From: Marsupella aquatica
Taxonomy: Eukaryota; Plantae; Marchantiophyta
Direction: 5' to 3'
Length of the DNA stretch: 64,000 nucleotides
NCBI GenBank assembly: GCA_973895155.1
Contig: OZ316891.1
Location: 8,433,875-8,497,874, forward strand
Below the pieces are notes generated by a model. It did no database searches and was not told the DNA's origin. It saw nothing but the letters and a program-made list of their open reading frames with translations. Of the stretch, positions 1-50,248 are shown in pieces (position 1 is the stretch's first letter; each line of letters begins with the position of its first letter). Both the position numbers and the translations under genes were made by a program.

Positions 1-90
1 TCTCCTGTAGAGAAACACAAGAAGATGCATGAGCCCGTATGGATGTAGTCACGCGAATGGTCGCGTCACATATTACAAAGAAAACATCCT

Positions 91-798
91 CTACACTCTG
101 GCCATTGATAAGTGACATCTGTTGAAGTGCTTGATAAGAACTTGATCCGCATGTCTCTGCACGTACAGATGCTCCCATATATCCTCGTTCAGATCCCAAT
201 CTCGATGTAGATTTCTAATCGACCAGATGGGATAATCGAACTTGTTAGCGAACGCAAGACAAAGCCCTGAATTTGATAGCTTTCGTAAATATGGAATGAG
301 GTCATCCCTCAAAAAGACATCATCCAACGATCCTTGAAACGACTTAGCGAACAATAATCCGCATACAGCTGTCTGGCATGTATGGGAAGGACAGGCATCA
401 ATCTGGATTATATTCTCTGGTCCATAATCTTGAAACATATCACGTAGTCTCTCGATAGATTTGAAGACAACAGTCTTATAATTTTTCTTCACATAACCAA
501 GATTCCAGCAATGATCCCGCGTGAACACATATATCAGCTGTGACAGGTCGGTGCTCGACAACACTTCTGAAAGTATCTGATAAACCAGTTTATCGTCAAG
601 AATAGACCAGACCATCACATCAAAATGATCATAAGAGAATTTTATAAGATCATGAAGAAGCGGCCTCGGAACGACACATAGAGATCCGATACGAATTCCG
701 GGTGCCGACTTGAGCTGAGGAGTATATTTTGAAACAGAGCACAGGAAGTTTTCCAGTCCTAAAACTAGAAGTTGACGCGATCTGCTCCACTTAGACAC
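91..798 (-). CDS. FCP1/NIF-like HAD phosphatase domain, probably inactive; terminal exon without its own ATG
   Basis: Motifs LLVLGLENFL..PRPLLHDLI..FDVMVWS..VFTRDHC..VFKSI..YGPENIIQIDACP; the DxDxT motif is lost. It is preceded by acceptor catttacag|GTG at 801-799. Confidence 0.7.
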   Translation of the reverse strand: MSKWSRSRQLLVLGLENFLCSVSKYTPQLKSAPGIRIGSLCVVPRPLLHDLIKFSYDHFDVMVWSILDDKLVYQILSEVLSSTDLSQLIYVFTRDHCWNLGYVKKNYKTVVFKSIERLRDMFQDYGPENIIQIDACPSHTCQTAVCGLLFAKSFQGSLDDVFLRDDLIPYLRKLSNSGLCLAFANKFDYPIWSIRNLHRDWDLNEDIWEHLYVQRHADQVLIKHFNRCHLSMARV

Positions 799-923
799 CT
801 GTAAATGAACAATTCGATTCTCATATTATGCAATTGCAAACAACCACGCGACCGGGCGCGTCACTCCCAAAAGTTCAATTTCAATCAATTTATAAATAAT
901 AATTGATAATAAACAATAAATGT

Positions 924-1829
924 TTACTTATTGGACTTATCCCGGGCTTCTATAGCACGGTCTTTTTCGGCAGATAAGTATTTCATAAATTCGTCAAACT
1001 TTTCTAAATGGTCTTTATTTCCCTGATTACGAATGATCACGTTTCTCCTCCAAAGATTTATCTTATCAATATAATCTTTCTCAAGATTTTCTTGAGAGAA
1101 CGTTGGAATCCCATATCCACTAAGGAGCTCGCGGAATGTCAACTTGTCAATTGACATGTCGCATAGATATGGATATAGTTTCTTTCTAAAAAATAGGTCA
1201 TCATCGAGCCCAGAATATGCATCGGGATACAGCGATGAATAGAAGTCATTAAGGCTCGTCTTATATGCAGCGTCATCGATAAGAATGACATTCTCGATGT
1301 TGTAATCTTTAATATCGGTGGCAATGTCCGAGAGATATTTGACAAATAAAGGGATGTCATTATTATTCTTCCCAATAAGTCGAGTTGATTCTTGTCCCCA
1401 TATAAATTTAATACGTTTCAAAACTTCGGGTCGAAGTATCAGCCTTACACAAGATAGAATATTTCGTTTGAACATGCACGACCAGATTGCAATGTCGTAT
1501 AGATCTGCCACCTTCTCAAGAAATTCCATTAAATCAGGCCTTGGATAGATAACCTTGTGCATCTGTCTCACACCCCTTGACCGAATGTGCATCCCAGGGC
1601 TGATCTTATCTGACCAGATAAGTACCCGATTCAGATCGAAAATTACAAGTCTCTTCTGAACCAGTGACTTCTTTGCCGATGGATTAGGCGCCATCTGTAC
1701 CTGTGATTTTTGTGCCGCAGGGTTTGGAGAACGTACTAGAACGGTCTGTTTGTTTCCCGCCTCTGGACGATCACTGGACTTCCGGACTGATGCCTTCGAT
1801 ACTCGATCAGGGGGTTTCAGGATAGGCTT
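924..1829 (-). CDS. FCP1/SCP-like (NIF) CTD-phosphatase domain exon
   Basis: KRLVIFDLNRVLI, YPRPDLMEFL, YDIAIWS, FIWGQE, FVKYL, ENVILIDDAAYK. Open reading frame from the acceptor at 1830. Confidence 0.85.
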   Translation of the reverse strand, partial: KPILKPPDRVSKASVRKSSDRPEAGNKQTVLVRSPNPAAQKSQVQMAPNPSAKKSLVQKRLVIFDLNRVLIWSDKISPGMHIRSRGVRQMHKVIYPRPDLMEFLEKVADLYDIAIWSCMFKRNILSCVRLILRPEVLKRIKFIWGQESTRLIGKNNNDIPLFVKYLSDIATDIKDYNIENVILIDDAAYKTSLNDFYSSLYPDAYSGLDDDLFFRKKLYPYLCDMSIDKLTFRELLSGYGIPTFSQENLEKDYIDKINLWRRNVIIRNQGNKDHLEKFDEFMKYLSAEKDRAIEARDKSNK

Positions 1830-1915
1830 CTGTAAAACATTAAGAAATGAAAATAAGTTTATAACGCGAACGGTCGCGTGACTACAAAGAGAGACACTGA
1901 AATGAAGTGTATTAC

Positions 1916-2704
1916 CTGTACAAGATGGTCGTTCAGTGCTGGAATTCCGCCGGAAATGTCAATCATAGCAGCACGGATCCCGGTAACTAGGTTACTTGCG
2001 GACGTCGGCTTGCGGAAGTCCATGTCAAATAACGACAAGACTATCTCCCTACGGAATTTCTCAATTTGATCCGCGGAAAAATTAATTCCGTTTCCTTGAC
2101 ACAAGCACTTGGCGTATCTCAAGATAAACACACCACAACTGTGGCCGTCACTCTGGTGAGGAATATCATTCCGATATATCCGTTCCCAACCTGAGAGATC
2201 CAAGTTGACACCAATTCTCCAGCCAATTTTGTCAGTGTAGTACTTCCCAACAATATCTAGCACCCCAGGATTTTGTCGATTATGAACTAGAGAATCTAGG
2301 TACTCTAGCCGTTTCTCCTTCGGATACAAGACTACCAATGACCAATGTTCTTTCACAGCATTGTGTACTGGAAAGACCAGTTTCTCGTATTCACTGATTT
2401 TTAGCGAAAACTCCTTTGTCCAAGCTGCTCTCTCCTCGTCGAAAATGGTAGGATCCATGGAGAGAAGCTCAAAATGGTGTGTTTGGAAGAATTTGACAAG
2501 GTCTGACTTTCCAACTCTATCGAGAATCAGTTCGAGAAAACTCAAATAAGCGTTAATTATATCATCGGTGAGCAACTCGCGCGGTCTCAGACACATCATA
2601 TGTTTCCTCTTGATTGAGTGTTGTAAGAACTTGGTCAATAGCTCTTCCATATCCTTAGAAGGATCAAGGCATTGATCTATTCGACTAGCCAAATTTTCAA
2701 AAAA
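1916..2704 (-). CDS. Ulp1/peptidase C48 SUMO-protease domain exon
   Basis: CLRPRELLTDDIINAY, VFPVH..EHWSLVV, YLDSL, PHQSDGHSCGVF: His-Asp-Cys triad and oxyanion Gln intact. Confidence 0.92.
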
Positions 2705-3716
2705 CTGCAAAAAACAGAGATTTCAGTACGCCTTCAAATAACGTACTGAGGTTGTAGCCTAAGGGTTGTAGCCTCAGAAAACAGAAACAATAACAGATCA
2801 ATAATGAGGTCTATAATAGAAACTTTAAGCTTATAGCTTGCGAATGACCTTTGGATTGGGTGGATCCGGCCTTTTTGCAGCTGATCTCTTGGGTGCCTCA
2901 ATCGCAACAACATCCTTCAGCCCTCCTCGAGACCGCAGTGATCGCTCCACCGGACCAGTTTGCGAAGGTTGGAGCGATGAGGCGGGAAGACCTTCAAATG
3001 GTTGTGGCATTTGATTCAAATATTCCACAATCTGGGAATCCGATTCCAAAATATCCGGTGCCACAATTTCTGCGCGAGTCACCTCTGCAATATATCGGGG
3101 TCGAGACCACGAACCCGGTCGCGTCAAGTTAGCTGTTAGTCTCTTAACGACTTGAGCCGAGTCTGGTGCCAAAAACGTTCCCAGGTCTTGCACTCGATTC
3201 TCAGAAAAGCGGACATTATTGATGATTGTCTCCATTCTGGATGCAGTGACAGTCTTCTCCTCGGTAATCAAAAGACCCTTCCAATATTGCAAAGCAAGGA
3301 CTGCCTGGACTCGAAGCTGCTCCGGTGAATATTTATTCCAATCATCCAAACAGACCGTACTTAAGGGTGGATCGTTAAATTCAAACTTCGGGCGAAGAAA
3401 ATAGTCTAATATTTTCTTCTTAACTGCAACTGAGGGTGAAGAAGGCTTCTTCAAATTCAGCCTTATTTTCGGTAGACGTTGTGCCTCAGGAATAAGCGAA
3501 AGATCCTTGGCCCTCTCGGCCTCCTTCCTCGCTGCCTCCAGTCTTGCGGCTTCTTCTCTCTCCAGTCTTGCGGAATCCACCTTTTCCGCCTCCAACTTCT
3601 CCGCCTCCACCCTCTCCGGTCTTGCGGTCTCGTCCGCCATCCTCTCGGCCAGCAGCCTCTCAGCCGCCTCACTCTCCGCCTTGGCCCTATTTTCCTCTGT
3701 CAATAAAAGGACTCTC

Positions 3717-4300
3717 GCAGCCTGGGCTTTCTCAGCCTGGGCTTTCTCAGCCTGGGCTTTCTCAGCCTGGGCTTTCTCCGCCTGGGCTTTCTCGGCCTCC
3801 GCTTTCTCAGCCTGGGCTTTCTCAGCTTGGGCTTTCTCAGCCTCCGCTTTCTCAGCCTGGGCTTTCTCGGCATCCGCTTTCTCCGCCTGGGCTTTCTCAG
3901 CCTGGGCTTTCTCAGCCTGGGCTTTCTCAGCCTGGGCTTTCTCCGCCTGGGCTTTCTCAGCCTCGGCTTTCTCCTTCTTCTTCGCGGCAGTTGCTTTTCT
4001 AGCTACTGCCTTTTTCTTCTTAACCTCCTTCTTTTGAAGCTGCTCTTGCCGGGCCGCCTCTTGTCGGGATGCCTCCTCCTGCCGGGCTGCCTCCTTCTTT
4101 TGAAGCTCCTCTTGCCGGGCCGCCTCCTGCCGGGCCGCTTCCTTCTTTTGAAGCTCCTCTTGCCGGGCCGCCTCCTGCCGGGCCTCCTCCAGCCTGGCCT
4201 CCTCCAGCCTGGCCTCCTCCTGCCGGGCCGCCTCGTGCCGGGCCTCCTCTTGCCGGGCCGCCTCCTCTCTGGCCTCCTCCTGCCGAGCCGCCTCCTCTTG
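3717..4300 (-). repeat. Coding tandem repeats (15-bp AEKAQ/AEKAE units; EEAARQ-type units) forming a charged helical spacer
   Basis: About 16 copies of gcctgggctttctca on +; translation in ORF 2831..4477. Confidence 0.9.
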
Positions 4301-5005
4301 GTCCACCTCATGTCGAGGCTCCTGTGTGGCCTCTTCATCAGAGTCCTCAGCGTCCTCGGAACCCTCAATCTCCTCATCCTCTTCATCAGCGTCCTCAGCG
4401 TCCTTCATCTCCTCTCCGTCACTCTCTTCATCTCCTCTATTGTCGGAATCTCCGACATCGTTCTGCGTATCGGTCATCCACTCTGGATCTTGGTCATTGA
4501 CATCCCCATCCGCGTCACCTTCCGCGTCACCTTCCCCCTCACCATCCGCATCACCATTGCTCCCTGCATCCTCAACATTGAAGCCGTAGTCGACTTGATC
4601 TGAATAAAATCAGATTATTTGATAAGAATGACTCACGCGTGAAAAGAAATGTTATGAATGTCCACGCGCATGTTCGCGTGACGCAATAAAAAGTAAGAGG
4701 TTTCAAAAGTAACTTACCTTGGATTGGCCCACTAGGGTACTCCGTTGGTCGAATGTACAATCGATCGAAATCTTCAGAGAGTGCATACTCTTGCAATAAT
4801 TGATTACAAATATTATCAGGGATATGTTGTTCGTGGAGGACATCCAAAACATCAGCCCTGAGAGCAGTTACGGATGGACGGTACTTCATTAATTTATCTA
4901 TACATTTTTCTATACTAGCCCGTACTGGGTCAATCAATGACAGCGTTGTATCAATTGTCGCTGTGGTGTGTTGCAAGAAACAAGACAACTCCCTATGCGT
5001 TGCCA

Positions 5006-5718
5006 CAGGGCAGTAATATTTTACATTGGATCCAGCATCCTGTAAAAAAAGCCGAAATTAGTTCACAATATTAATTGAGAATATAATAATCTAAATAATC
5101 TTACAATCGAAACCCCAAAATATAAATCAAAAAACTTACCATTAAGCACTGGATCAAGTTCGTTCCCTCACCGAAGCATATAGCCCATTCCCCACATTGG
5201 ACGAATTGACTAACAATACTTTCAAAGAATGGAAGTATCTTTTCTGGGGAAGGTGTCGTGAACTCGCCGCTCTCTTCAAAATTGGCTATCTTCTCAATCT
5301 GATATTTGGAGACCAATTGGAACTCGAGGGCTTGTGGATCGCCCATTGTGCTGAAGGCCAAGCTGTGAAAAGCGTAGGTTACAATAAGCTTCTTCTCCTT
5401 CGGCCTCTTCTGAATATAATGGCTATCGACAGCAACGTAGTGTGTGTACTTCCCTAATTCCCGTTTGATTAAGTAAGACTCAACGGGAGAGGCTACAATA
5501 ATAACCACATGGTGTGGTTTTGCCCCTATCTCGCTAGTAGCACGAAATAACCCCTCATAGAATGAGCAATTTGGCGGACGCAAATCTCCCATTGATGAAG
5601 GATCAAAATAAATCAAGCTCGCAAGGTTCTTGTCTTCACGTATGATACAGTCTGCAAACCCAGCATTTTGTATATCCTGCAGGGATCGCAATTTTAGCCT
5701 CTCACCGACCGGCCGCAC
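5006..5718 (-). pseudogene. Degenerate beta-class N4C/N6A DNA methyltransferase-like domain
   Basis: ADCI..ASLIYFDPSS resembles GDC..VDLIYxDPPY (motif IV). Downstream PSPEKILPFFESIVSQFVQCGEWAICFGEGTN..DAGSN resembles PTQKP..LI...S..GD.VLD.F.GSGT...GR (motif I). The IV-then-I order is that of the beta class. Confidence 0.5.
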
Positions 5719-6542
5719 TAGTTGGTTTCCTTGACTATCAACTGATTTCTATATTCCTTCCACCAACCTGTAGAATATAGGGTCGATCTCCTTCAACAAA
5801 TTATCATTACTAATATTTACATTTAAGCACTTCTTCAGATAACCACTCAACACATCTCTCAACTGCTTCAGCACCATCTTGTCGAGCTTAAAGCGATCAA
5901 TCATTCCTTTGACCCGCAATTTCCGCGCTGAATCTGTCAGACTTTTCAGCTCCGTCCGGGTGGATGTTTCCCCGTTGAGTTTACTCAATAATAAAATCTC
6001 AAACTCAACTTTCGTCTTCTTCTTTCTACAGAATTGCTCCAAACTCATGCTGGTCGTTGACAACACTGGAGCCTCAGAGGACTTCCTCGCCTTCCCAGAT
6101 TTCACTTGATGCTTCGGTTTTTGAGTATAGACAGTCTTCCGCTCAACATATATTCCGCTGCCTTTCGAAGAACCGAGTCTGAGCACCCTTGACAAGAACG
6201 GAACGTCTTCTTCAGAAGATGATAAGCACACGGATTATCCGCAATTTTGACGGCGTCCCTCTGTAAAATTCCGTTGTAAATTACAAGCTCTCCTGTCCTT
6301 GATAGTTCGTAGACCTCCATCCACTTCTTGAATGTTTCGTCCTCCATTGTAAAGAGAAACGGAGCCAATTCTCCAAATTTCATCATTTCGTTCTTCCCCA
6401 TTTGAGCCCATGGGCAGACAAAACTCATAGCTCTCATAAATACCTGAAAAACAATGGAAACATGACAATTCTAAGCTTGACGCGACCGTTCGTGTGACAA
6501 AAGTTTATACGATAATGTGATCGAAGAGGGTTATTTATATAC

Positions 6543-7050
6543 CTTCCAATTTGGATGACGATAATGTGATCCAGGCCGCCCAAATGAGTTCCAGATATTA
6601 CGACACTGTCGTACAATGGTGAGAAACTGTCATTCTTCCATTGATGTTTGATGACAATGGTTCAGAGCTTTCGATAATCCCATCAAATGAACATTATTGT
6701 CGTTGTTGAGCGTTGCCCAAAACATTACAGCTTCTACAGTACCGCAAGCGTCTCGTACAACTTGGCTGACTTTGTCATCCTCTCTCAGCAATTTGTACGC
6801 CATTATTGTGTGCTGGCCTCCGAGTATCCAGAAATGATTGGTCATAATGTCCTCCTCCTTTGGTGATGAATCATAGGGCGTCCCATTGTAGTCGGGATCT
6901 CTGTCGGCCTCCGACTGAACCCACTTCACAGGGACTAAAAAGCAGCATCGCTTCTCGAACTTTATAGCCGAATGAGAGAGGAGTGAATTCTTTAGCCTAT
7001 CTGTGTAATCCTAATTCCACTCTCAGCACTTGATGTGGTCCGGTGCAAGA
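6543..7050 (-). pseudogene. ParB/Sulfiredoxin-like N-terminal domain
   Basis: Read through two stops: IKC*EWN*DYTDRLKNSL...FLVPV...FWILGGQHTIMAYKLL, matching the R..(v..L..Si)...Y.IixGxH/R.xA pattern. Confidence 0.55.
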
Positions 7051-7856
7051 TGACAACGTGATGTCTCAACAAAAAATGACTTGCTGTTAAATATATTCAC
7101 AGCACTATATTCTTTGAGGAAAGAATCGAACAGAGCCCCGACATTCGCTGAGGTAATTACTTTCGGAAGATTCTCCGCCGAGTATACTTCAACCTTGCTC
7201 ACTGGCGGGGCCTTTCCCAAGCGAAATCCCTGGTTGAAAGGAACTCTCTGGAACTCAAGTACGTCAATAATGTATTGACAAATCAAATCTCCCGTTGATG
7301 CCTCTGGATCGGAAGGATATCCCACACTAGTAACCTTTTCCAAGGCGTGCCTTGCACCTAGAAGATCATCGATTCTGGGCTGATTGAAGGTTACATATTG
7401 CGTTCGATCCAAACAAATGCTTATTTTGTCTTCCTGCTGGTCGTCGCTAACTAGCAGAACCAATTCCTCTGTACACTCTTTAACTTTCATGTTCTTCTCA
7501 AAGAAACACCCGAGAATTTTTGATCTCTCCAAAATTGTAGCTTTATCATTTCTTGCCACCACAAGACGGACAGCCCCATTGCGAACGACTATTCCAAAAT
7601 CGGATATCTTAGTCGATTCAAAGAGATGGATACTCTTTGTCTCCGTTGTTCTCTCTCTGATTGACTTTCCTCGATATGCAAGTATGGATGTCTCCGCGGG
7701 AGTCATTTTTGTCTTGGTTTTCTTTCGAGAAGCAGCTTTAGACAAGTCTCTTTTCCGCTTTGAGGTTCCGGTAGGATCCATTCTGAAACAGACAAATATT
7801 GAAAGTTAAATGTTTATTATAAAATACTAACACGTGCATGGTCACGTTGTGCCGAA

Positions 7857-8387
7857 TTACATTTTAGGAATGTTTATCCTGACCCAATCTTCTCGCTCAT
7901 CTTCATCTAACCAAAACCAAAGGTTCCTAAACTTGTCAAGTTCAGATCCTTCAAATCCACCCAGAATGTCCAGCGGCGGGAGAGTTGTGATGGATTCTGT
8001 AAATCTGAATGCTACACTCCGTGAAGTCAAATGCCTTCGAAGCGATTCATATCCTGGTCTATCAGTGAAGTCGTAAGCTACCAAGGTGACCGTCGCCCAA
8101 GTACTACTATAAGTAACTATGTGGCACCACTTCTTACTAACTGTTCGAATGGCGATCAAGTCCATGACCCGATTTTTAATCGCAGTATCCGACAAATTCC
8201 CAAGACAGTGGAAAAACTCTTTGACTAATGGCCAAATATATTTCTCGACAATATCGTCCGGAAGACCGGGTATCAGGTCTTCAGCTTGACTCCATATCAT
8301 GTTTCGGTTCATAACCTTTGCACGTGCAATGCGCTCCATCATCATTTGACGATGAGATTTTCGATTCATGTCAAAGGACTGCAGCAT
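7857..8387 (-). CDS. F-box-like protein, paralog 3
   Basis: LIPGLPDDIVEKYIWP...IRTVSKKWCHIV; resembles the plant F-box motif. Confidence 0.7.
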   Translation of the reverse strand: MLQSFDMNRKSHRQMMMERIARAKVMNRNMIWSQAEDLIPGLPDDIVEKYIWPLVKEFFHCLGNLSDTAIKNRVMDLIAIRTVSKKWCHIVTYSSTWATVTLVAYDFTDRPGYESLRRHLTSRSVAFRFTESITTLPPLDILGGFEGSELDKFRNLWFWLDEDEREDWVRINIPKM

Positions 8388-8421
8388 AATATGGAAAAGA
8401 TTAAGAACAAGAACTTATCCA

Positions 8422-8988
8422 TTAAGAACTAGGACCACCGAGATTCTGAGAAAATCTACCAAACCTTTCGATTAGGACATCTCGTTCTTCCTCATCTAAA
8501 TTGTTATATTTGTTTGTAAACAATGCGATTTCGTCAAAAGTAGTAGTCCCAAGAACATATATTTCTGGAAGCATAGAAATATCCTATCGAATAACTCGAC
8601 AGACTGAGTCAAACTCCAACTCGTCAATTTCGGGTATGTTGTAAAGAGCATCATTTGCGACATCGACAATCCGGTTTGCTTGTTTGAGGATAGCCCATAA
8701 CCTTGTATTTGTAACTAAAAAGTTCCACTTCTTGCTACAAGCTCCAAGCCGAATAAGGTCTCGGACCCTATCGATAACCAAATCGTTATCGAGGTGTCGA
8801 TATCCACGCAATCTTTCAATTGAAATAAAGTGTTTGTAGAGTATTGGCCAAATGTTTGAAATGACCAAAACATCTGGTATTCCTCCAATGAGACTAGAGG
8901 AGGTTTCATCCAGCGTATCCCATATTGTTTTCTGTTGCTTTTCATGAGATGAAAGGAAATCTCGAGCCTCATTCAAAAGTTGGCTCAT
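8422..8988 (-). pseudogene. F-box-like protein, paralog 2 (premature TAG at 8584)
   Basis: LIGGIPDVLVISNIWP...LGACSKKWNFLV. Read-through gives DISMLPEIYVLG...NLDEEERD, homologous to the paralog C-termini. Confidence 0.7.
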
Positions 8989-9053
8989 CCTGCTTTTATC
9001 ATATCACAAAACATTGTTAGAAGACATACGACGCGCTTGGTCACGTAAGTTAA

Positions 9054-9605
9054 CTAGAATTCCTTAAAAGCGTAGATGTCACCCTCAAGGTATCCAACTT
9101 TGTGGCATCTGACTATAAATTTCCATTTTTCAAGAGGGTGAAGAGCATCGTAAGTCTTCGCGAAGAGTTCCCTAAGATCTCTGGACATTGATCCCATGAA
9201 TTTAATTCTTGGGTATTTCTGGAAGAAACTTTGAATTGTCGATGAGAGAGACTCATTTCCGATCGGTTTAGTAGGATTTCCTGGGAAAGCCAAATCTAAT
9301 AAACTCAACTTGATTACACCCAGAAGATAGGTATTCCCAACAAGGTGGCGCCATCTGCGACACACCGAAGATAGTCCTACAAACTCATCCAATTCCTTTA
9401 TTGAGAAATTTCCTGCATTAGCCGAGGAATTAAAAGTCTCCTTGATCCGAGGCCATATCAATTCCACGACAATGAAATCTGGAAGTCCAGGTAGTAGTGT
9501 TTCAACAAATACAGAATATCCCACCAGTAGACCATCTTGGCTTCTGTCCAAAACGTCAAATATTGGGCATAGATATCTGAAGCTCTCCAGACCAGGTTCG
9601 CCCAT
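9054..9605 (-). CDS. F-box-like protein, paralog 1
   Basis: LLPGLPDFIVVELIWP...LSSVCRRWRHLV. Confidence 0.72.
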   Translation of the reverse strand: MGEPGLESFRYLCPIFDVLDRSQDGLLVGYSVFVETLLPGLPDFIVVELIWPRIKETFNSSANAGNFSIKELDEFVGLSSVCRRWRHLVGNTYLLGVIKLSLLDLAFPGNPTKPIGNESLSSTIQSFFQKYPRIKFMGSMSRDLRELFAKTYDALHPLEKWKFIVRCHKVGYLEGDIYAFKEF

Positions 9606-9739
9606 GACTCTTTTCAGCCAAATGATATATCCCAGAGATTATTTTCACGCGACTGGTCGCGTCTACAAATCATAATGCATAAACAATTCTTTGAGAGACT
9701 GATTTTTTCGGGTGACAACGTGAAATCATAAATGTTGCT

Positions 9740-10362
9740 TCGTCCTCTAACAGAACCAGTCAATGAGAGAGCAACCTCAGACGCGACTGGTCGCATCAAC
9801 TGAACCTAAACAACTATATCCACTGAACCTTCTGTGGAGATTTGGATATGGTACGCGCTCAGTAAATCTATCTAGTTTCCTTCTCACACGCGACTGGTCG
9901 CGTCAACTGGTCCTAAAAGGAACCTTACCTCCTCTAACAGAGCCAGTCAATGAGAGATCTACGTCAGACGCGACTAGTCACGTCAACTGATCCTAAAAGG
10001 AACCTTACCTCCTCTAACAGAACCAGTCAATGAGAGAGCAACCTCAGACGCGACTGGTCGCGTCAACTGAACCTAAACAACTATATCCACTGAACCTTCC
10101 TTGTGGAGATTTGGATATGGTACTCGCTCAGTAAATCTATCCAGTTTCCTTCTCACACGTGACTGGTCGCGTCAACTGGTCCTAAAAGGAACCTTACCTC
10201 CTCTAACAGAGCGAGTCAATGAGAGATCTACGTCAGATGCGATTGGTCGCGTCAACTGAACCTAAACAACTATATCCACTGAACCTTCTATGGAGATTTG
10301 GATATGGTACGCGCTCAGTAAATCTATCCAGTTTCCTTCTCACACGCGACTGGTCGCGTCAA
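9740..10362. repeat. Composite tandem array (80-bp and 107-109-bp units), one palindrome per unit
   Basis: Palindromes at 9781, 9888, 9968, 10048, 10157, 10237 and 10344, with near-identical flanks. Confidence 0.92.
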
Positions 10363-12869
10363 CAACTCAAACAACTTTTGGACAATAGGATAATACAGTG
10401 ATACAACTGTGATTACTGACCCGTATGGACAAGGAAATCCGAGTAAGCATGATTTCATTCATTTGTATTCATTCATGAACTTTACAATAATTCAGATGTT
10501 TGAGCTCTGTCATTGTGAAACTATTATATATTAGAAGTTTAGAGAATGATCCAGCTAAGATGATTCAATTTAGCAGTCTACTGGTTGTATTTGTCAATTA
10601 AAGGATTCAGTGTAATGAGATTCACATAACATGAGAGTTTATATGATTAAATTCACATCGTGCAAGTTTGTAATGACTTACTTAAGACGATTCAGGTTGT
10701 ATTTTAATTAGTGAGTTTGTATGATTCACACATATTTGAGTTTACAAACAAACTGCATTATGAAAACTGTGCTTAATAATCAAGAGAAATTTTAGCAAAC
10801 CACAATCAACACCAGCAAAAAATGTAGAAATTACACCTGAATTCTGAAAAATTGATGTAATTGTCTGAGAGATTGACGTCCAAGCGCTTGAACACCTTGC
10901 TGCGGCATTCCAGAAAGTAAATATAAGATTGAAGATATTAATATACTAAGCAACAACAACACAGCTTCTATACTTCTATACATAGAGCTTCGCTGCCATC
11001 AATTGAATAACATGTGCTTAATGCTAAGGAGCTCATTATGTCGAGTTAAAAAGACTCTTTGAGAAGTACAATCAAAGCTGTGGATAGGCAAACTGAGCAT
11101 GAATAAAAGCGCACTAAACCTGAAGATTCAAAGAGGTGAAACAAACCTGAATGCTGAATGGAAGGAGCTAAAACAAGCTGCCAAAAAGTAGTTCGAGCTG
11201 CTGAAACACATTGATCGAGCTGATATGAGCTTAAAATTGGCTGACACGAGCTGATACAAGCACTCCCAAAAAGCTAGCTGCAACGAACTAGCAAACTAGA
11301 AGTGAATACGAGCTGTAAATGCGAGCTGCAATGCGCCAACGAGCTCCTGGTCAAAACGATGGACAACTACTAAGAGCTGCAACGCGCCGACAAGCACCTG
11401 ACCACAACGAACGAGCTGCAACGACAAAAATGAAATCCAGGGCAGGAGCGAGAGCGAGAGCGACGAGAGCGAGAGCAACGAGAGCAGGCACGCAAAAGTC
11501 TAGGGAGCGAGAAACAACAACAATGAACAATGAACTCGAGACCGTGTGCGCCGACACTAAGGAAGGACTAATTAGGGTATTGTTTTAGCATAACCCTAAT
11601 AACAGCCTAGCGACAGGAAGGTTCCAGATGATCTCCGTACACTCCACCATCGACTGAACAAACTATGCAATCGTGAAAAAAAGATTACCGGATTCCTTTT
11701 GATTTTCCGTACTAAAGGAGATTTCTATTTGATGGCCAATTTGAAATTTAAACCGGTAATTATGCAACTGCGAAAGATTGTTAATGGGGACCCCCGGATC
11801 CGTATCTTCACTATATCTGCCAATTCAAATCCAAAATGTGAACGAATGACAACTTTCTCACGATCGTTCCATCACGTAGTGGAGGCAAACTTCAAAATCA
11901 TTCCATTTTGGTAGTGGAGACCGTCGGATCCGGATCCGTACTCCACTCTCTATCTTGCCAATTCAAACCCTTACTCTAAACAACGTAAAATGATTCTCAC
12001 GGTCGGGGAGAACCGATATTCAAAATCAATCCTGTACAATGATTCTCACGACTGGAGACTCAACCAATTTTCAAAATCAAAATCGAGTCCAGATGAACAC
12101 ATCCTCCATGGAGTCAATAGACTGATCTCATTGCTCACGGATCATTCTTCATTTTCAGTTTCTCCTGACCAGGATACTAGCTGGGCTCTCAACGGAGGCT
12201 GATCCAAGGCACATTTGAGGTGGAGCAGATTGGATCATTCGACTATTCCAGTCGGAGGCGGAGCTCATTCAAGCAACGCTGGCGCAGTTCTTGTTGTGTC
12301 ACCTTCAATCTTGGGGAGAGCACATCCGATCAAGCGGGAGAGTTGCGACGAAGTGAGATGACAAACATTTAGAACCTCCATAGTCTGCCTCATTCATCGA
12401 AGCATTCTAGCGGACCAACAAAGAGCGGCTATTCTAAAATCACAGTCTGGTCGAGGATTTTGATCTTGATACGATCAACAAGTTGTCATTCTCTGGTGGT
12501 GGGATTCGATCACGATACTCAAGGAAATTGGAGTTCGAAGGAGGAGGCTTAGTTGGCTGGGACGAGGAGGGTACGCTGGAAGGAAGAGGCTTGGCTGGGA
12601 GGAGGGTTTCCGCCAACATCGGAGGGTTGCCGCCAACATTGCTGAGACCACACGCAACTGAATAACTTGTAAGTATCAATCAGCATTAATTCCACAATAA
12701 ATGAGGAGAGTAGTTGCCTTAAATCACGCATTCAATGCATGAATTGAGTCAATGAAGTTATGGTCCAATTTCTCACTCCGATTTTGATCAATCCGTGTTT
12801 CAAGTCCAATACAGAAGCAATGTATCAGAAGTACTAGTAGAGGATCTGAATGAATTCTCTAGTCTAAAA

Positions 12870-13855
12870 TTGTATGGCGTACGTGTATAGTTGTCTATAC
12901 GTTTTGCTATTGTTTATTGTAGTCGACGGCCTAGCAAAATGAAACGTAATCGAGGTCCATTTTTCAGATCTTCCTGATCTCAACTTGTTAGTACGATGAC
13001 CTGTTTTTTGGTTACACATGCAGTTCGTCACGCGCATAGTCACGTGAACCAATTTATCTCGTGTCTTTTGATATTGTTTATTGTAGTCGACAGCCTAGCG
13101 AATTGGCCAGAAATCTATTTTTAAACCAATGTCTTCGTTTCATCACGCGCACGGTCGCGTTAATGTTTTAGAGGTCAGCGAAAGTTCTGCACTCTTAGAC
13201 GTAATCACCCTTTATTTCAGAGATCTTCCTGATCTCAACTTGTTAGTAGGATGACCTGTTTTTTGGTTACACATGTAGTTCGTCACGCGCACAGTCGCGT
13301 GAACCAATTTATCTCGTGTCTTTTGATAATGTTTATTGTAGTCGAAAGCCTAGAAAATTGGCCAGAAATCTATTTTGAAACCGAGTTCTGATTCACGCGA
13401 TCGGTCGCGTTAATGTTTTAGAGGTCAGCAAAAGCTCTGCACTCTTAGACGTAATCGCCCTTTATTTCTCAGATCTTTCTGATCTCAACTTGTTAGTAGG
13501 ATGACCTATTTTTTGGGTTACACATGTAGTTCATCACGCGCACAGTCGCGTGAACCAATTTATCTTGATATTGTTTATTGTAGTCGACTGCCCAGCGAAT
13601 TGGCCAGAAATATATTTTAAAACCGAGGTCTTCGTTTCATCACGCGCCCGGTTGCATTAATGTTTTAGAGGTCAGCAAAAGCTCTGCACTCTTAGACATA
13701 ATCGCCCTTTATTTCTCAGATCTGCTTGATCTCAACTTGTTAGTAGGATGACCTGTTTTTGGTTACACATGTAGTTCATCACGCGCACAGTCGCGTGAAC
13801 CAATTTATCTTAGGTCTTTTTGATATTGTTTATTGTAGTCGACAGCCTAGCGAAT
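12870..13855. repeat. ~250-bp tandem repeat, about 4 copies, two palindromes per unit
   Basis: Recurrent gatctcaacttgttagtaggatgacctg and ttgtttattgtagtcga; palindromes at 13030, 13145, 13285, 13395, 13536, 13642 and 13781. Confidence 0.92.
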
Positions 13856-14059
13856 TGTCAGTCAGAGGAATCTCGATTTTTCCTTGATTGCAAAAATGGT
13901 TACATCGATCCCGAAGGACTTCGGATGTGGAATCCATATCCACTAGCACTATCCAGGAATTTAAGCTACACAGTATCTATAACAAGTTCTAACTTGAACT
14001 ACTCTTGAATCTGTAGTTCTAATCTTCGACTACTCAAAATATTGTTGACTTCGATCGAG

Positions 14060-14602
14060 TCAGTCATTCCAAGATGAAGGCATCCACTCATCGGTGTCTG
14101 GTGTGGATTCCCTTGAATCCAGAAATTCTTCCTTTGCCCAAGTCCTAACGTCCATAGATTTTCTCGGCTTGCTCTTTCTGTAATACAAATCAGAATCTTT
14201 GTTCATCTCTAATTGCCTTTTCTTCGGTGCGTCCACTTTCTTGGCCTCCTTCTTGACTGTCTTAGTGTCTGCTGCTGCTTCCCCCGAAATGGATTCGATG
14301 CATGCTCTGGCCTTCAACTTCTCCCCCCTTGAAACGGATTCCATGAGGGCTTTGCCCTTTAACTTCTCCCCTGATGCCATCTTTGTAGTCATCTCTGTCG
14401 GATTGGTCTCCATCTGATCTTCCATCGACAAATGTGGCGAACAATATCGTCTCTCACAAAACATTTGACCCGATTTAGTCACCGTAAACATTATATTACA
14501 TCGCTGACACATTCTGTAAGGAGTACCACAAATTTGATACGTCGAACCTTCTGAATCGTCCGTCGAAACATCCTCATTCTTTGAGCTCAGCGGAGTAGTC
14601 AT
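14060..14602 (-). CDS. Small cargo protein with a C4 zinc-finger-like motif and charged tail
   Basis: Intact 180-aa ATG ORF; CQRCNIMF....QMFCERRYC. Confidence 0.5.
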   Translation of the reverse strand: MTTPLSSKNEDVSTDDSEGSTYQICGTPYRMCQRCNIMFTVTKSGQMFCERRYCSPHLSMEDQMETNPTEMTTKMASGEKLKGKALMESVSRGEKLKARACIESISGEAAADTKTVKKEAKKVDAPKKRQLEMNKDSDLYYRKSKPRKSMDVRTWAKEEFLDSRESTPDTDEWMPSSWND

Positions 14603-14919
14603 CGCCCTTCAAACAAGAGATGCTGACCGAGACTAAGAATTGGAAATGAGAGAGCTGATGTGCGAATAGATTATCCAGTAGCTAGAAAGTGGAATGCCTG
14701 GGGGAATGAGCAATAGAGATCATCTCAATACTTTATACTGTTTAGTCTCCACTAGTCATTGTACATAGTGGTTTCTAGAAGAGGGTGCGCGTTTGACTGG
14801 CGCGTATTAGAATTGGCGGGAAGTTCAGTTGTCCTCTAATTATGACTTTAATTTCACGTTTGGCGACCGCCCCGGGAATACTGATTGCTAGTGAAGTACT
14901 GAGATTTCTTATGAAGGTC

Positions 14920-15690
14920 AATAGTTACTGACTGTCCGGTGTCCACTCATTGGTAAACTGGTACTGTCCACTCATTTTTCCTGAGTGGAGTTGAAATGAT
15001 TGTTCGTAATCGATTGTAGTCGTTCTTATTCACTTGAAATGACTGACGGACCATGCATTATCTTTACCGGTATGTGTGATGCCTTTAGATCCGTAATTGT
15101 ATCTTCCTGTCTCGCGCGCAATCGTATCTTACTTATGAAGTACCAATTACGAGCTAGAGTTTGGGCCTAGCCTTCTAGCTTCTACGTCGTAGACCCTGTA
15201 CCCTCTGACTAAGGTCACGCGACATGCCTTTAGATCCGTAATTGTATCTTCCTGTCTCACGCGCAATCGTATCTTACTTATGAAGTACCAAGTACGAGCT
15301 AGAGTTTGGGCCTAGCCTTCTAGCTTCTACGTCATAGACCCTATTATCCCTACACCCTCTGACTAAGGTCACGCGACTAGTCGCGTGCAGGGCAGTGCAT
15401 TGACTACATTCTGCCTACTTATTGACGGTTGTGACAGGACAATGCAGTTCACGGACGTTTTACTGGCGCTTATTAGCACTACTGTCCTCAGTAGTTACTG
15501 ACTGTCCACTCATTTGTTCTAAGTGGATGTGAAATGATTGATCGTAATCGATTGTGGTCATTCTCATTCATTTGACATGACTGACGGACCATGCATAGTC
15601 TGTTGCCGGTATGTGTGGTACCTCTAGGGTCACGCGACCAGTCGCGTGCAGCGCAGTGCATTGACTACATTCTGCTTATTGACCGACGTG
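14920..15690. repeat. Nested direct duplications upstream of the transposase
   Basis: atgcctttagatccgtaattgtatc at ~15079 and ~15224; tagttactgactgtcc..gacggaccatgcat at ~14922 and ~15492; palindrome+gcagtgcattgactacattc at 15371 and 15632. Confidence 0.85.
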
Positions 15691-15774
15691 ACAGGACAGT
15701 GCAGTGAAATTGACGGACGTGACAGGACTATACGCTTACAGTGATATTCTCTGATGTGCAGGATCATAATTATT

Positions 15775-18700
15775 ATGGTGACATCGACAGTCTGGATCAG
15801 GGAAGGCGGACAAGTAATTATAGGCATACGTGAGAAACAGGTTGGAAAAGGTCGCGTGATAAGTCTTGATCCTTCCAGGGTTTGTCACAATGTTCCTCTT
15901 GGGGCGGACAGAGTTCTTCTTCTATTGGAGGAAGTTTTTGACGAGACCATTCTATGCGAAGATGGCAAACTTTTGAAGGACATGATTGGGGGTTACCTTG
16001 TATGGGAAAGGAATCAGCTTTTTTGAGCTCCCATGGAATCGGAGGATGTGTTTGGCACTGTTGGTGATGATCAAGATCCAGTCAATCAAAATTATGATGG
16101 GAACAACCATAATGAGAGTCGGTCTGGTGTGGAAGTAGTTTTACCAAAGGCCTTGTGGATGGGCATGCCTGTAAAGGTGGTGGATGAGAACAAGTTGATA
16201 TTTGCAGTGGCAACTATACATGTTCTAGATCCTATAGTCAAGCTTGGGGATGTCACCCTTGGGAATACACATGTGAGAATTCTGATCAACGATTTTGTCG
16301 AGGGAGCTACCATAGATCATCTGAAGCATAGAGATTGCTTAAAAGCTTGGTCGATGGACCAACTCATTGCCAAGGATGGCAACTTGTTGTCTTTCCACAA
16401 CATCAGGCAAGTTCTGGGAGGGAACACATCTCCAACAAGTGGCAAGCGGTCCTACGTCCATAAAAGTAGGAAAAGAAAGAGTCCATCTTCCCAGACATCT
16501 AGAAGAGACACATCTTTGGCACGTCAAGATGTGTTGTTGATAAACACTAAGGACTGTTGTAGTGAACATTGTTGCCAATATTTGGACCGCAACTTGGTTA
16601 TGGCAATTAGGCAAAAGTGGTGGTCAAAATCTTTTGCGGAGCGCAAGGAGGAGGAAATCAAGGCTATTAAAAATACAATACACTTGGGTACTGGAGAAAG
16701 GATTCTAGCAGTGGAGGGCAAAGTATTGTGCTTGGAGGCATGGAGAATCATTCATTCAAGAGGAAAGACTCAATTTTATGCCTTGAAGAAGACTGTGATG
16801 GCTGGAATGAACATAGGTACCCATGGTAATGCTGGAAAAAGGCGTATGTCCGAGAAAGTATCTCAAGCGTTCATGTCAATGAAAGAGATTATTGAGGAGG
16901 CAGCTGATCATCATCCAGCCAAGTTGAGAACCATGGCAGATAATACAAGGATGGTTTTGAGGGAATTGCCAACAAATCTTACTTGGGAGAATATTAGAAA
17001 CAGGGTTAATGTTGTCAACCACGAGGCTGGTCTTCCTCCAATTTCCCAACCCACCTTGAGTCATCTACATCAGACGTATTTCAGGGAGTTCTCACGTCAC
17101 AAAAAGGGCAACAACTTTTCAAAGTGTACAACTTGTAGTGAGTTGCTTCAACGGAAAGCAAACCTTACAGGAGCTAAGGAAGAGTTAGAGGGCCTAAGGC
17201 GTGACGAGGAGGAACATCACCAAGACCACACACAACAAAGAATGTGCTATCATACCTGGAGATATGAGTCCATCCATCGTCCAAAGGAAGTGTTATGCCT
17301 TATTCATGATAAGATGGATCATTCAAAGACAGCTCTCCCAAGAATGCCCTTCAATCCTAAGCATGTGGATGGTGCCCAAAAGTTCTCAATTACTGTCACT
17401 GGTATCCTTACTCATGGTCATGGTCCCAAGGCCATAGCCCAATATCATGTTGGAGTGTGGCCAGGTGATGTCAACATCACTATTGGGTCAATTGATTCAA
17501 TACTAAGGATGTTGGAAAACCCAATTCCAATGATCAAATCACTTGTGGAGGGGCCAGACTCGACAAGTCTTTTTAAAGACCTCCTTTTTGGGAGAGCAGA
17601 TATCTTGGAGGCAAGTGTCCTTAGAGCATTTGAGGATGACATTGCCTACATCTCAAGCCTAGGTACTTTACTCACAATCCTTTAATTTATTATTATTTAA
17701 TAATATAAGCTCACACACACTGACACTCTACTTTGTGTAGTTGTTGCTCCTCCTAGCCAAGGTTTCATTAATAGGGTTTAAACCCTAAACCCTAAATTGG
17801 GGTTTAGGGTCTGACTAGGGTTTTGTTTAAAAGCATTCTGAGATTGTTACATTGTGATGCAGCACCTGAGGCACCAAAGTTCAGGCCCCTTCCACGAGTA
17901 TTGAAGCTACAACTGGATAATTGTGCCTTAGACAACAAGAATAGATATATGATGGCTTATTTGTCATTGTTGACGGCAAGGGAGGTGTTTGAAGAGGTTC
18001 ATCTTGGTTTTATGGTGGTTGGGCATACTCATGAGGACGTTGACAGTATGTTCGGGCATTTTTCAGAGTCTATGATGCATAACCCCACATACTCATTGCC
18101 TGAGTTAATGTCCTTGTTCATGAGAGCAAGGACACCCAATGCAGTCCCACATTTTCTACAGGAGGTCCCAGATTTCAAAAACTACTTAGCTCCATTCATG
18201 TTGAAGGGCCCTGAGGCATTGGTGGGGCATTTAAAACCCAGGCTGTTTAGGTTCTATGTTCGTCATGATAGTATGCCATGCTTCCAATACAAAATGAAGT
18301 CAACTGATCAGGGATGGTTACCCAAGGAAGGTATTGAAATGTGGTCATGGAAAGATGACAAAAGTCCTCACATCCCAATTGGGGTGCCCAAACGGCTACC
18401 AATGATGGAGTTGAAAATGCTTCCTGAAGTGCTGACAGGGTTGAAGAAGCATGTGTCATTCTTTGAGTTTATTCTAAAGCGAACAAAAGAGGAAGAACCA
18501 AAGCGACGTTGGACAACTCTCATCAATTATTGGAATGACATTGTAGATACTCTACAGGGTGAGCAGGTGCAATATGAACCTGAAGGTGCACACAACTTGG
18601 AATACGGGTTTTGGCCTTTATCAATATGGAGAGAGCACGTTCCACCAGAATATCGAAATGTGGCATGTGAGTTGGAGGCAACAGTGGATTATGTGGGACC

Positions 18701-19151
18701 AGCAAAAGATAAACCTCCTGAGAGTTTTAACCCTAGGGTTGATGTTGTGAAGGGCTATTATGTGTTGGTACGGCCGGACGACTCAGACCTGGATGTTTAT
18801 CCCGTCCATATGGGGTTAGTTGTTACAGATGTGGTAGAAGGACCAGTGAATGAACAAAACCTTCTTACTCATGTATGTGGCGTTGAGTGGTTTAGACCAT
18901 TTATGGCAAAGAAGCAACGTGGTCAATCAGACTGGCAGCCAAGAGAGCGGTGGGCAGATTCTTGGGATAAGAAATGGGAACGTGATCCATCTCCAATATA
19001 CAAGGAAGCTGAGACAATAGATGTTTCCTCTGCCTTGTGGTGTTTCAAAGCACGCAAAGGACCAGTGATAGGGCTGGTAGGAATTCCAAAGAATGTTGTT
19101 GTCAAGGCAAGAGACTATCTCTTGACATGCATAGCAAGTGACAAATCCTAG
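15775..19151 (+). pseudogene. DDD-type transposase (Sola-like/DUF7869-like), spliced, with one premature stop
   Basis: Motifs CCSEHCC, FSKCTTC, LIHDKMD, LKLQLDNCALDNKNRY, FMVVGHTHEDVDSMFG. Exons 15775-17662, (17741-17761) and 17863-19151 are phase compatible. The TGA at 16024 is in frame with ATG 16033. Confidence 0.75.
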
Positions 19152-19246
19152 ACAGTAATGAAGCATGTAGTTTAGCATACAGTTTAAAAGGCAACTCAAA
19201 ATAGTAGTAGCCAGAGAACTCAAGTTTAGACAAGTCTTATCGTCTA

Positions 19247-19805
19247 AGTTAGTTAGTTGGTTAGTTTATTTAAGATATAATATTAGTTAGTGGGGCCTTA
19301 GTTTGGTGATATTAAGGCATGATATTATTGACATTCAACATTGTAATATACAACAATCCTATTAATAAATAATAATTATAGTTACACCCTCAAGTGAACT
19401 CAACTTTCAATGATTTCTGATTTTATATGGTTCCATGCCTGATTGAGTCAAAGCAATAGAAACTAACTAATTAAAGGGTGATACTATAATTGTAGGTCAC
19501 GCACCCTGGTGCGTGTCAATCTTTTTTGTATTCAACCCTATAGTAATTAAATAGACAAGTTAGTTAGTTGGTTAGTTTATTTAAGATATAATATTAGTTA
19601 GTGGGCCCTTAGTTTGGTGATATTAAGGCATGATATTATTGACATTCAAATAAATGTCCAGTAGACATTGTAATATACAACAATCCTATTAATTGTTGTA
19701 AAGAAACTAATTAATTAAAGGGTGGTACTTACTATGATTGTAGGTCACGCACCCTGGTGCGTGTCAATCTTTTTTGTATTCAACCCTATAATAATTAAAT
19801 AGACA
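19247..19805. repeat. AT-rich direct duplication downstream of the transposase
   Basis: aagttagttagttggttagtttatttaagatat at ~19246 and ~19556; tgtaggtcacgcaccctggtgcgtgtcaatc at 19491 and ~19739. Confidence 0.88.
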
Positions 19806-21309
19806 ATTGAAACAATGAATGATAGTTTAATTAAGGATTTGTGCATGGATCAAAAGGTACTTGATGTCATTTAATGATGCATTGTTATAAAGATCTTGTA
19901 ATAAAACATTTGAAATTTTTGACTATCCCATTAAATGTTAAAAAGGTTGATCATTCATTAATTAATAATATTTAGATAAAATTAGAATTAATCTAATACT
20001 TCACTATTCCTTAAATTGGGGTTGTGAGTCCCTCGGTTCTATACACTCGCGAGGTCAGTTGCAGAAAGAGACAATTGAAACGATGTGAGAAATTAGAATT
20101 CCGTCATCCACAGCCGCTTCTCATTTGCTGACGCGAGTTGTAGAAACTTTGGTCTTGAATAGTGGAAAGACACTGAACCGTCTAGTGACACTCTTCTCTG
20201 ATAGGTACCCGGCCGCAACGAATGCATGCCTTTTCCTGTACCGTAAACCCGTCGAGGTGACGGCTGCTTTTGGAAAAGCATCTATAACTTGAGATTAATT
20301 CAGAAGGTGCAATTCGTCCGGAATCCAACGTCAAGGAAATGTGTCGACAGTAAGTCTTGGACAAAATTTCCACATTCCAACGTCACTGTCCCCAATGTGT
20401 TGTGACTACTTAATTACCCTAATAAGAGAATGTTCAGCGTTCCTACACATCCTCCTAAGTCTCTGGAAATCGTCAACGCTACCAGATCGAAGCACTATGC
20501 AGTAGACTGCAGTCCTAGCTTGTCGGTACTTCTCAAGTGGAATGTACCTTCAGAGAATTTCTCAGATGTTGCAGATTGAAGGAGTGCCTCTCATAATACA
20601 CTATACTAAAATGAGAAGATAATTCTAACTTGGAAACAGTTCGAGTGCTACGATCGACCGACCCCTAAGACTTGTCTGCGTTTAACTCAATATCCTCCCT
20701 GGCTGTCAATCATGTCCGGCATTGCGCTAGGCTGACGTTAAGTGAAGAATATTCAGTGCAGCTCACTCAGGGTTTCGAATGATTGTACAGTATTCACTTC
20801 AGCTCCGGGTTTCGACATTTAGGAAATAAATTAAACTTCTTGGACCCTTAGACTGATCTCAAGACCAGCAGAAATCTTTGCCCATAGCTTGTTCACATGA
20901 TGCTAGCTACTCTACATGGCAAACGCTGCAAGGGATTGGGATTCCGTCAGGCCGGGAGAAGTACCTTCCTCTCTCGAAGAACGCATAAATGAACACAAAA
21001 AATACTAGAGTGGTGCCAATTGAGCTACTCAGTCGGATACTCATGCTAATCTTGGAGAATTCAAATTAGAGAACGTTTCCAGCGGCCTGTAGGTAGTAAG
21101 AGCAGTGCTTGTGGGCCTACTCGATCCGGACCCGTCTAGCTTCTAGATTCAAGTGCAAGAAGCTGCTCCTGCTCTGCGATGTACGTACCCAGCTTAATCG
21201 TCAACAAACTCACGAATGATGCCTTTCATGCAGCCAACCGTGTACTAGATTCTGAGGCTTCCATTCAATACACACATCTCAGCGACCTAGCCTAGTTCAT
21301 GAAACTAGC

Positions 21310-49619: not shown

Positions 49620-49965
49620 AAACTTCATCTAGTTTCATACAAACTCATCAGCACTTCATCCAGCTCCACAAAATCTCATTAGCACTTCATCTAGTTCCAT
49701 AAAATCTCATCAGCACTTCATCTAGCTCCAAAAAATCTCATCAGCAACGTAGAAATTTCACATCATCTAGTTACATAAAATCATCAGCAGCACAGAAGTT
49801 TCATACAGTTCCATAAATCTCATCAGCAATAGAGACACTTCATCTAGTTCCATAGACATCTCATCAGCAACACAGAAGTTTCATATAGTTCCATAAAATC
49901 TCATCAGCAACAGACAGAGACATCTAGTTCCATAAAATCTCATCAGGAACACAGAAGTTTCATAT
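49620..49965. repeat. Degenerate minisatellite
   Basis: catctagttccataaaatctcatcagca-like unit, about 9 times. Confidence 0.85.
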
Positions 49966-50248
49966 GCTGTTCAGATAGTTTCATTGACTGGTATAGGCAC
50001 TGGAATCTGCAAGTTCGTGCAAGTAATGCGAAGGCCAATAAACTGACTACTCTGCTGACAACAACTTAACTGAGAGTTAGAAGATGACCACCATGCTCAG
50101 AATGATGGTCCTGACTCTGGACGAGCATCCATTTGCACATTAGCACAATTCATTTCCATTGCAAGCTGAAACCATTCGCCACAATTGGTAAGTGGAAGCA
50201 TACTTTGCTCCAATAGAAACTGAAACGCTGCACAGTTTCAGAGGATTC

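Follow-up and report, generated by a model that had tools for sequence, protein, structure and literature searches.

The element and its genes

The window analysed here comprises 64,000 nucleotides of Marsupella aquatica (contig OZ316891.1 of assembly GCA_973895155.1, positions 8,433,875-8,497,874; all coordinates below are window-based). Its first 20 kb belong to a transposon that carries a dispersed 16-bp palindrome and an accessory gene encoding a predicted ParB/Srx fold, and the relation between these two is the subject of this report. A first-pass annotation, made from the sequence, had described a giant transposon with a cargo arm, and sequencing depth agreed with it. Summed contig depth from public runs was high over 1-20 kb and reached the host level after the bin 19918-20318, and six contigs of run X1 had loose ends directly behind position 20023. 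The element is thus a multi-copy DNA transposon of more than 20 kb, which occupies 1..20023 with its right end at 20023 and its left end outside the window. In run X1, the host flank was covered at depth 14.2 with 0 differences and the long element contigs at depth 434-743, which suggests some tens of near-identical element copies, although depth is no copy number. More diverged subfamilies, at 80-85% identity, exist as well. The right end reads ...TTGGGGTT, with terminal GGGTT, and the 4 bases after it finish in A. Because it combines a DUF7869 transposase with a GGTT-type end (GGGTT, seen at one end only), the element is probably, if not provably, a Sola1 transposon. We rejected an alternative end of CACTA/Chapaev type at 20026, since the loose contig ends begin after 20023.

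The copy in the window is broken: exon 1 of the accessory gene has three in-frame stops, and exon 2 carries one stop and one frameshift. It is also decaying by deamination. Among 49 listed C-to-T differences, which are the best-supported part of several hundred, 23 lay at CpG and 13 at CHG, each context making up 17% of cytosines. In majority contigs, the stops at 7025 and 16024 and the frameshift near 6105 were absent.

The accessory gene lies on the minus strand. Exon 1 (6543..7781) encodes a predicted PH-like fold (residues 36-187) and the predicted ParB/Srx fold (residues 231-381), exon 2 (5140..6443) a conserved post-ParB region followed by a region with a by-eye likeness to methyltransferases, and exon 3 (4718..5039) no known family. 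Exon 4 (2831..4599) contains an acidic stretch, 15-bp coding repeats and a C-terminal region without known family; the repeats, at 3667-4320, encode long AEKAQ and EEAARQ runs. These exons are followed by an Ulp1/C48 SUMO-protease domain (1916..2704; PF02902, E = 9e-18) and two NIF/FCP1-like phosphatase domains (924..1829, PF03031, E = 6.7e-11; and 91..798, PF03031, E = 9.7e-10), the second of which is a possible alternative last exon. Splice phases were compatible at all seven junctions tested, with a weak donor from exon 4 to Ulp1; the exon 3-4 donor has its GT starting at 4717, in phase 1. The Ulp1 and phosphatase domains of the first-pass annotation were therefore recovered, as PF02902 and PF03031 matches on a splice-compatible polyprotein. 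Upstream of exon 1, three tandem F-box-like open reading frames (ORFs; 7857..9605, minus strand) matched PF00646/PF12937 at E = 0.001-0.04, under the curated cut-offs. Judged by its splice signals, the gene can yield one spliced product with F-box-like, PH-like, ParB-like, middle, Ulp1 and NIF parts. At 7782-9650, a 3' splice acceptor stands a few bases before the ATG of exon 1 and of each F-box-like ORF, an arrangement that would suit a single leader joined by splicing to several ORFs. At 91-1915, the Ulp1 donor is in phase with both NIF exons, suggesting alternative last exons, and joints in runs X2 and X5 hint at further copy-number variation in the NIF region.

A DDE-type transposase gene (DUF7869; 15745..19151, plus strand; PF25273, E = 1.2e-36), is CpG-depleted and has one intron near 17660-17810. 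Within the intron, at 17760-17830, telomere-like TTTAGGG/CCCTAAA words occur, and the terminal word AATTGGGGTT is found there once more. A small ORF with a cysteine cluster (14060..14602, minus strand) belongs to no family. The 2.4 kb at 10500-12900, between the two tandem arrays described below, are CpG-rich, without ORF family or site, and possibly represent decayed cargo.

Number, placement and shape of the palindrome

The palindrome ACGCG(A/C)-N4-(G/T)CGCGT occurs 27 times in the window, as 15 exact, 7 one-mismatch and 5 two-mismatch sites. All of them lie within 51-19762, and the 44 kb of host flank beyond hold 0 sites within two mismatches. The first-pass annotation had listed 26 sites and none after 20 kb; all 26 coordinates were found again, no site appeared beyond 19762, and a 27th with two mismatches was added at 3109. 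Within the window, the count is 27 inside the element against 0 outside. With up to one mismatch there were 22 matches, compared with a mean of 0.02 and a maximum of 1 in 100 dinucleotide shuffles. A blind scan for gapped palindromes (5-bp arm, spacer 0-20) ranked the same word first, with 15 copies against 3 for the best word of the flank, and ACGCG..CGCGT was seen at spacer 6 only (lengths 0-14 tested).

Nine sites are isolated (51, 846, 1864, 3109, 4664, 6480, 7832, 9031 and 9647; 51..9662). Tandem array 1 (9743..10453) holds seven palindromes at 9781-10344, and tandem array 2 (12902..13857), built of a ~250-bp unit with two sites each, holds seven at 13030-13781. Two palindromes, at 15371 and 15632, lie in a local duplication (15371..15647) between the transposase gene and the divergently oriented ORF near 14 kb. 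Two subterminal sites, at 19499 and 19747 (19499..19762), lie in a 248-bp duplication; in both, the inner CpG has disappeared from each arm. Since 14 of the 27 sites stand in the two arrays and two further pairs in local duplications, ~14-15 independent contexts can be counted. The flanks of 13 independent sites had a mean score of 26.7, like that of shuffles (26.1; highest shuffle mean 27.1), which upholds the earlier observation that isolated copies have unrelated flanks. The unrelated flanks therefore imply repeated gain or retention of the site in ~14 contexts.

At 7835, 13401 and 13653, majority contigs agreed with the consensus, and those of three runs had an extra exact site near 4630 that is lost in the window copy. 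Deamination had been offered as the source of most variant sites; the majority contigs, with C-to-T changes at CpG, support this for at least some of them. A 35-bp step back at 6467-6501 in contigs of X1 and X2 fits a tandem duplication of the 6480 intron site in some copies.

Eight of the nine isolated sites in 1-9700 are non-coding, in introns or spacers, though 88% of that DNA is coding (P ~4e-7). An intron around the ninth, 3109, was considered, and no convincing donor was found; this site was counted as coding. Of the 11 non-coding gaps in 1-9700, 8 have a site, and one of the empty gaps, 8388-8583, looks by eye like the tail of an F-box-like ORF beyond a premature stop. The impression of about one site per intron or inter-ORF gap thus fits most gaps of this region, with the coding site 3109 as a departure from it.

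When symmetrised, the half-site reads ~(T)(C/G)ACGCG(A/C)(C/A)(C/T), and the arm centres are 11 bp apart. The 4-bp spacer, previously thought to be free, proved constrained at 0.9-1.0 bit per position (0.97 and 0.89 bit at the two symmetrised positions). Mirror pairing of the inner positions was found in 7, 7 and 6 of 14 sites, compared with 7.7, 7.4 and 7.0 for shuffled half-sites. Because the inner positions pair like shuffles, the palindrome is better explained by a protein that reads each half-site by itself on double-stranded DNA than by a hairpin, and the halves appear to vary independently of each other, in keeping with this. We hold it very improbable that the words act as single-strand hairpins, in RNA or in DNA, or derive from tiny inserted elements that gave rise to the introns, with the CpG step described below being a module junction only. 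Most isolated sites do lie in short introns, 30-65 nt from the 3' splice site, and accessory genes are described, in the available text of one study, as moving between transposon families (10.1101/2025.02.11.637652). However, the inner positions show no covariation, about half of the sites mispair beside the arms, and the flanks are unrelated. Moreover, the arms conserve one sequence, beyond complementarity, and no Rfam match was found in 1-21000.

The inner ACC stands in the right half (plus strand) of 9 of 14 sites and in the left half of 2 of 14 (post hoc P = 0.018), a hint of site polarity. Plant factors that read CGCG-type words include CAMTA, FHY3/FAR1 and E2F, and the palindromes lie in introns and likely promoter regions, where a host transcription factor could read unmethylated CGCG words and sites could accumulate for transcription or openness. 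We regard this explanation as unlikely. The 44 kb flank, which holds at least 4 host genes, contains 0 sites at up to two mismatches, and to our knowledge the fixed 6-bp spacing matches no motif of CAMTA, FHY3/FAR1 or E2F.

The host genes, at 23406-54083, encode a class I (Ile/Leu/Met/Val-type) tRNA synthetase, a HAD hydrolase, TAF10 and a rhodanese. The flank also contains a 35-bp tandem array (39926-40507), 31-40-bp repeats (49622-49976) and a broken, CpG-depleted Copia retrotransposon with gag, integrase and reverse transcriptase (58830-62383, minus strand). At 21521-23526, small peaks in depth, together with the loose ends found at 23122 and 23217, point to short repeated elements.

The ParB-like protein, the CpG step and the candidate binder

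Exon 1 gave 32 matches at E <= 0.001 among 1.84 billion representatives, of which 2 were judged spurious (P0013 and P0032) and excluded from alignments. The homologues were 23-60% identical to the window protein. Among 20 matches looked up, of which 1 was spurious, the species was known for 2, both Calypogeia fissa. A model of exon 1 built with 27 sequences had a predicted local distance difference test score (pLDDT) of 81.8. When residues 231-381 were compared with known structures by VIA-align, PadC matched best (Z 8.2, root-mean-square deviation 3.0, 99 aligned), then KorB (Z 8.0), SerK, Atu1540, SbnI, Pnob8 ParB and sulfiredoxin, so that the top 7 rows were all ParB/Srx-fold. The top 10 rows of Foldseek were likewise all ParB/Srx-fold (probability 0.90-0.99, but E 0.035-0.14). 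Residues 36-187 were matched by PH folds at Z up to 5.0. Neighbours in the Atlas were eukaryotic clusters, including DUF3723 (31% of members) and ParB_N (32%). From these models, exon 1 of the accessory protein is predicted to have a ParB/Srx fold, in line with the ParB-like domain of the first-pass annotation.

The post-ParB region of exon 2 occupies the position of the ParB helix-turn-helix and is 41-42% identical to two homologues. The methyltransferase-like domain proposed for the following region was not detected. Its likeness consists of DPSS and FGEG words seen by eye, in beta-class order. A profile of 36 methyltransferases gave -2.9 bits on the exon 2 region, there was no Pfam, NCBIfam, PHROG, PDB or Atlas match, which leaves room for a degenerate domain, and a single-sequence fold of the region had a pLDDT of only 36. 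No ParA ATPase was found among the 30 window ORFs scanned, the left part of the element lying outside the window.

CpG content divides the element. With the sites masked, the observed-to-expected ratio was 0.83 in 1-15900, 0.29 in 15901-20023 and 0.58 in the host flank, and the best change point was 15,950, ~300 bp beyond the last intact site. Counted at codon boundaries, CpG numbered 124 in the cargo exons, where 141.5 were expected, and 13 in the transposase, where 49.4 were expected (P = 2e-6); the ratio for the whole transposase gene was 0.30. Both sites on the CpG-depleted side are without inner CpGs. Because a contig of depth 598 spans the step (15856-16161), the step is a trait of the family. 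On its simplest reading, the motif-bearing arm would have long escaped methylation in the transposing lineage, and the step lends indirect support to anti-silencing. If the homologues come from plants, as shown for two, their divergence (23-60% identity) argues against a very recent arrival of the cassette.

The explanation we prefer, and judge to have somewhat better than even chances, is that the sites are bound by a dimer of the element's ParB-fold accessory protein, which in active copies keeps the arm free of methylation, in the manner of the VANC protein of Arabidopsis. The dimer would fit arm centres that lie 11 bp apart. The fused SUMO-protease and phosphatase domains would thereby be delivered to the chromatin of the element, and the bound protein would hold the cargo arm open and shield it from methylation, as VANC does.

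Several observations weigh against this explanation. The Pfam ParB match reached only E 0.09, and a Z of ~8 is close to the level reachable by unrelated models. No helix-turn-helix was identified after the ParB domain, where neither Pfam nor PDB gave a relevant match. The 18 sequences that display the motif all have G(G/D)(Q/M)H(T/S), e.g. GGQHT, in place of GERRxRA (PMC7333895), the arginine-rich CTP (cytidine triphosphate) patch of bacterial ParB. Towards the transposase, CpG retention stops ~300 bp after the last intact site, although in the opposite direction it extends over 2.6 kb without sites; such a one-sided step is unexplained by simple symmetric spreading, and a junction of modules with different history could give a like step. 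The cargo arm of the window copy is itself deaminated (23/49 C-to-T differences at CpG vs 17% of cytosines), and the host gene TAF10 keeps its CpG too, with an observed-to-expected ratio of 0.98. Finally, no related locus with gene and flanks was found among viral, genome and metagenome contigs. The viral and genome sets gave none, and the metagenome contigs gave two, namely L002, a decayed 1.2-kb piece without the motif, and L001, a false match that lies antisense to a bacterial regulator and was rejected. Word-index protein searches for relatives returned no match, and viral contigs had 0 paired sites and 2 lone matches, taken as chance.

Binding by another protein of the element appears rather unlikely. 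The sites would then be occupied by the transposase, serving end synapsis or self-activation, or by the product of the cysteine-rich ORF at 14060-14602, with the ParB-fold protein recruited or separate. Transposases and TnpA are reported to bind motifs that occur in clusters and to cause hypomethylation of their own elements (10.64898/2026.08.24.746577, available text), and two of the palindromes, 19499 and 19747, are subterminal. However, these two are the degenerate ones, 25 of the 27 sites are internal, >4 kb from the right end and in accessory-gene introns, and TnpA motifs are reported at termini in the same text.

The first-pass annotation had gone further than our preferred explanation and proposed a clamp of the ParB/parS kind, of which the predicted ParB fold and the 16-bp palindrome are seen here and the arginine patch is not. 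Such a true clamp, a sub-case of dimeric binding by the ParB-fold protein, would load at the sites, close on CTP or another nucleotide and slide. Its nearest folds (PadC, KorB and ParB), the retention of CpG over the 2.6-kb site-free gap and an upstream arginine retained in the homologues covering its position speak for it. The patch replacement, 18 of 18, speaks against it, and a site in nearly every intron would suggest a short reach, not long sliding. A CTP-gated sliding clamp is thus possible and, because the arginine patch is replaced, not favoured; we rate the true clamp as decidedly improbable. The boldest version is also a doubtful one: a co-opted ParB clamp that would load at the intron palindromes, move along the element, bring SUMO protease and phosphatase and keep the 16-kb arm CpG-unmethylated, with the same-way polarity of the sites setting the protected side.

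Relation to known systems

The sequence of the site differs from the parS consensus. The Marsupella system resembles bacterial ParB/parS, KorB/OB and Noc in its ParB/Srx N-terminal fold and in a palindrome spread over its own replicon or element (PMC7333895). Unlike bacterial ParB, the Marsupella protein is without GERRxRA and has a PH-like part in front and eukaryotic chromatin-enzyme domains behind. ParB-helix-turn-helix-fused methyltransferases (PMC4738411) represent a different fusion.

The motifs bound by VANC, from the Mu-like VANDAL elements of Arabidopsis, lie in introns, spacers and tandem repeats, and VANC reduces methylation (PMC5735166). As there, a short motif in Marsupella occupies introns, intergenic and terminal non-coding DNA and is amplified in tandem. 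In contrast, the VANC motifs are 8-9 bp long and their binding is shown, whereas the Marsupella element has a 16-bp palindrome, a predicted ParB fold and a CpG footprint that is evolutionary only.

Two algal transposon systems also encode ParB-like proteins. In Sola1-1_Ec32 of Ectocarpus, a gene with ParB and methyltransferase parts lies opposite the transposase, and its product was suggested to attach to the element that encodes it and to modify it (PMC12477816). That element and ours are both giant (21.5 kb vs >20 kb here) and have their ParB-like accessory gene and their transposase on opposite strands; the termini AACCG-CGGTT compare with the right end GGGTT here, and both are followed by bases ending in A. 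Unlike the Marsupella protein, in which no methyltransferase was detected, the 1104-aa protein of Sola1-1_Ec32 has a recognisable N4C/N6A methyltransferase; its host is a brown alga, and the main text of that report is without the word 'palindrom'. The Marsupella gene runs on into Ulp1 and NIF, with F-box-like ORFs upstream. PAG3 of the red alga Bostrychia, an accessory gene of Plavaka (EnSpm) transposons, has a ParB-like domain and adjacent inverted-repeat arrays, for which self-binding was proposed (10.1101/2025.02.11.637652). It shares with our element a ParB-like N-terminal domain in an accessory gene and tandem inverted-repeat arrays beside it. It differs in its putative 2-oxoglutarate oxygenase, in its transposase superfamily, and in repeats that form arrays by the gene and not single intron sites; no CpG footprint is described in its available text.

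The idea itself is not new, since self-binding ParB-like accessory genes were proposed in 2025 for red and brown algae in the texts available (10.1101/2025.02.11.637652, PMC12477816). Those proposals came without tests in the text covered, and the Marsupella element adds a precise candidate site. We found no report of a bryophyte case, a Ulp1-NIF fusion, a site-linked CpG footprint or a binding test, although the algal supplements may hold such sites. The family is young, with near-identical copies, and the CpG step predicts where protection starts and stops. If the binding is true, it would be a second, independent plant anti-silencing system besides VANC and TnpA, with a bacterial fold at its base, and could serve as a tool for protecting chosen sites from silencing. 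Should nucleotide-gated sliding be true as well, it would be a ParB clamp working on eukaryotic chromatin. By our reading, the system would work like VANC and belong with the algal ParB-like accessory genes, and the patch test places it outside bacterial ParB/parS. The Marsupella element is thus no new category; it is a land-plant variant of a published algal design, with a testable site.

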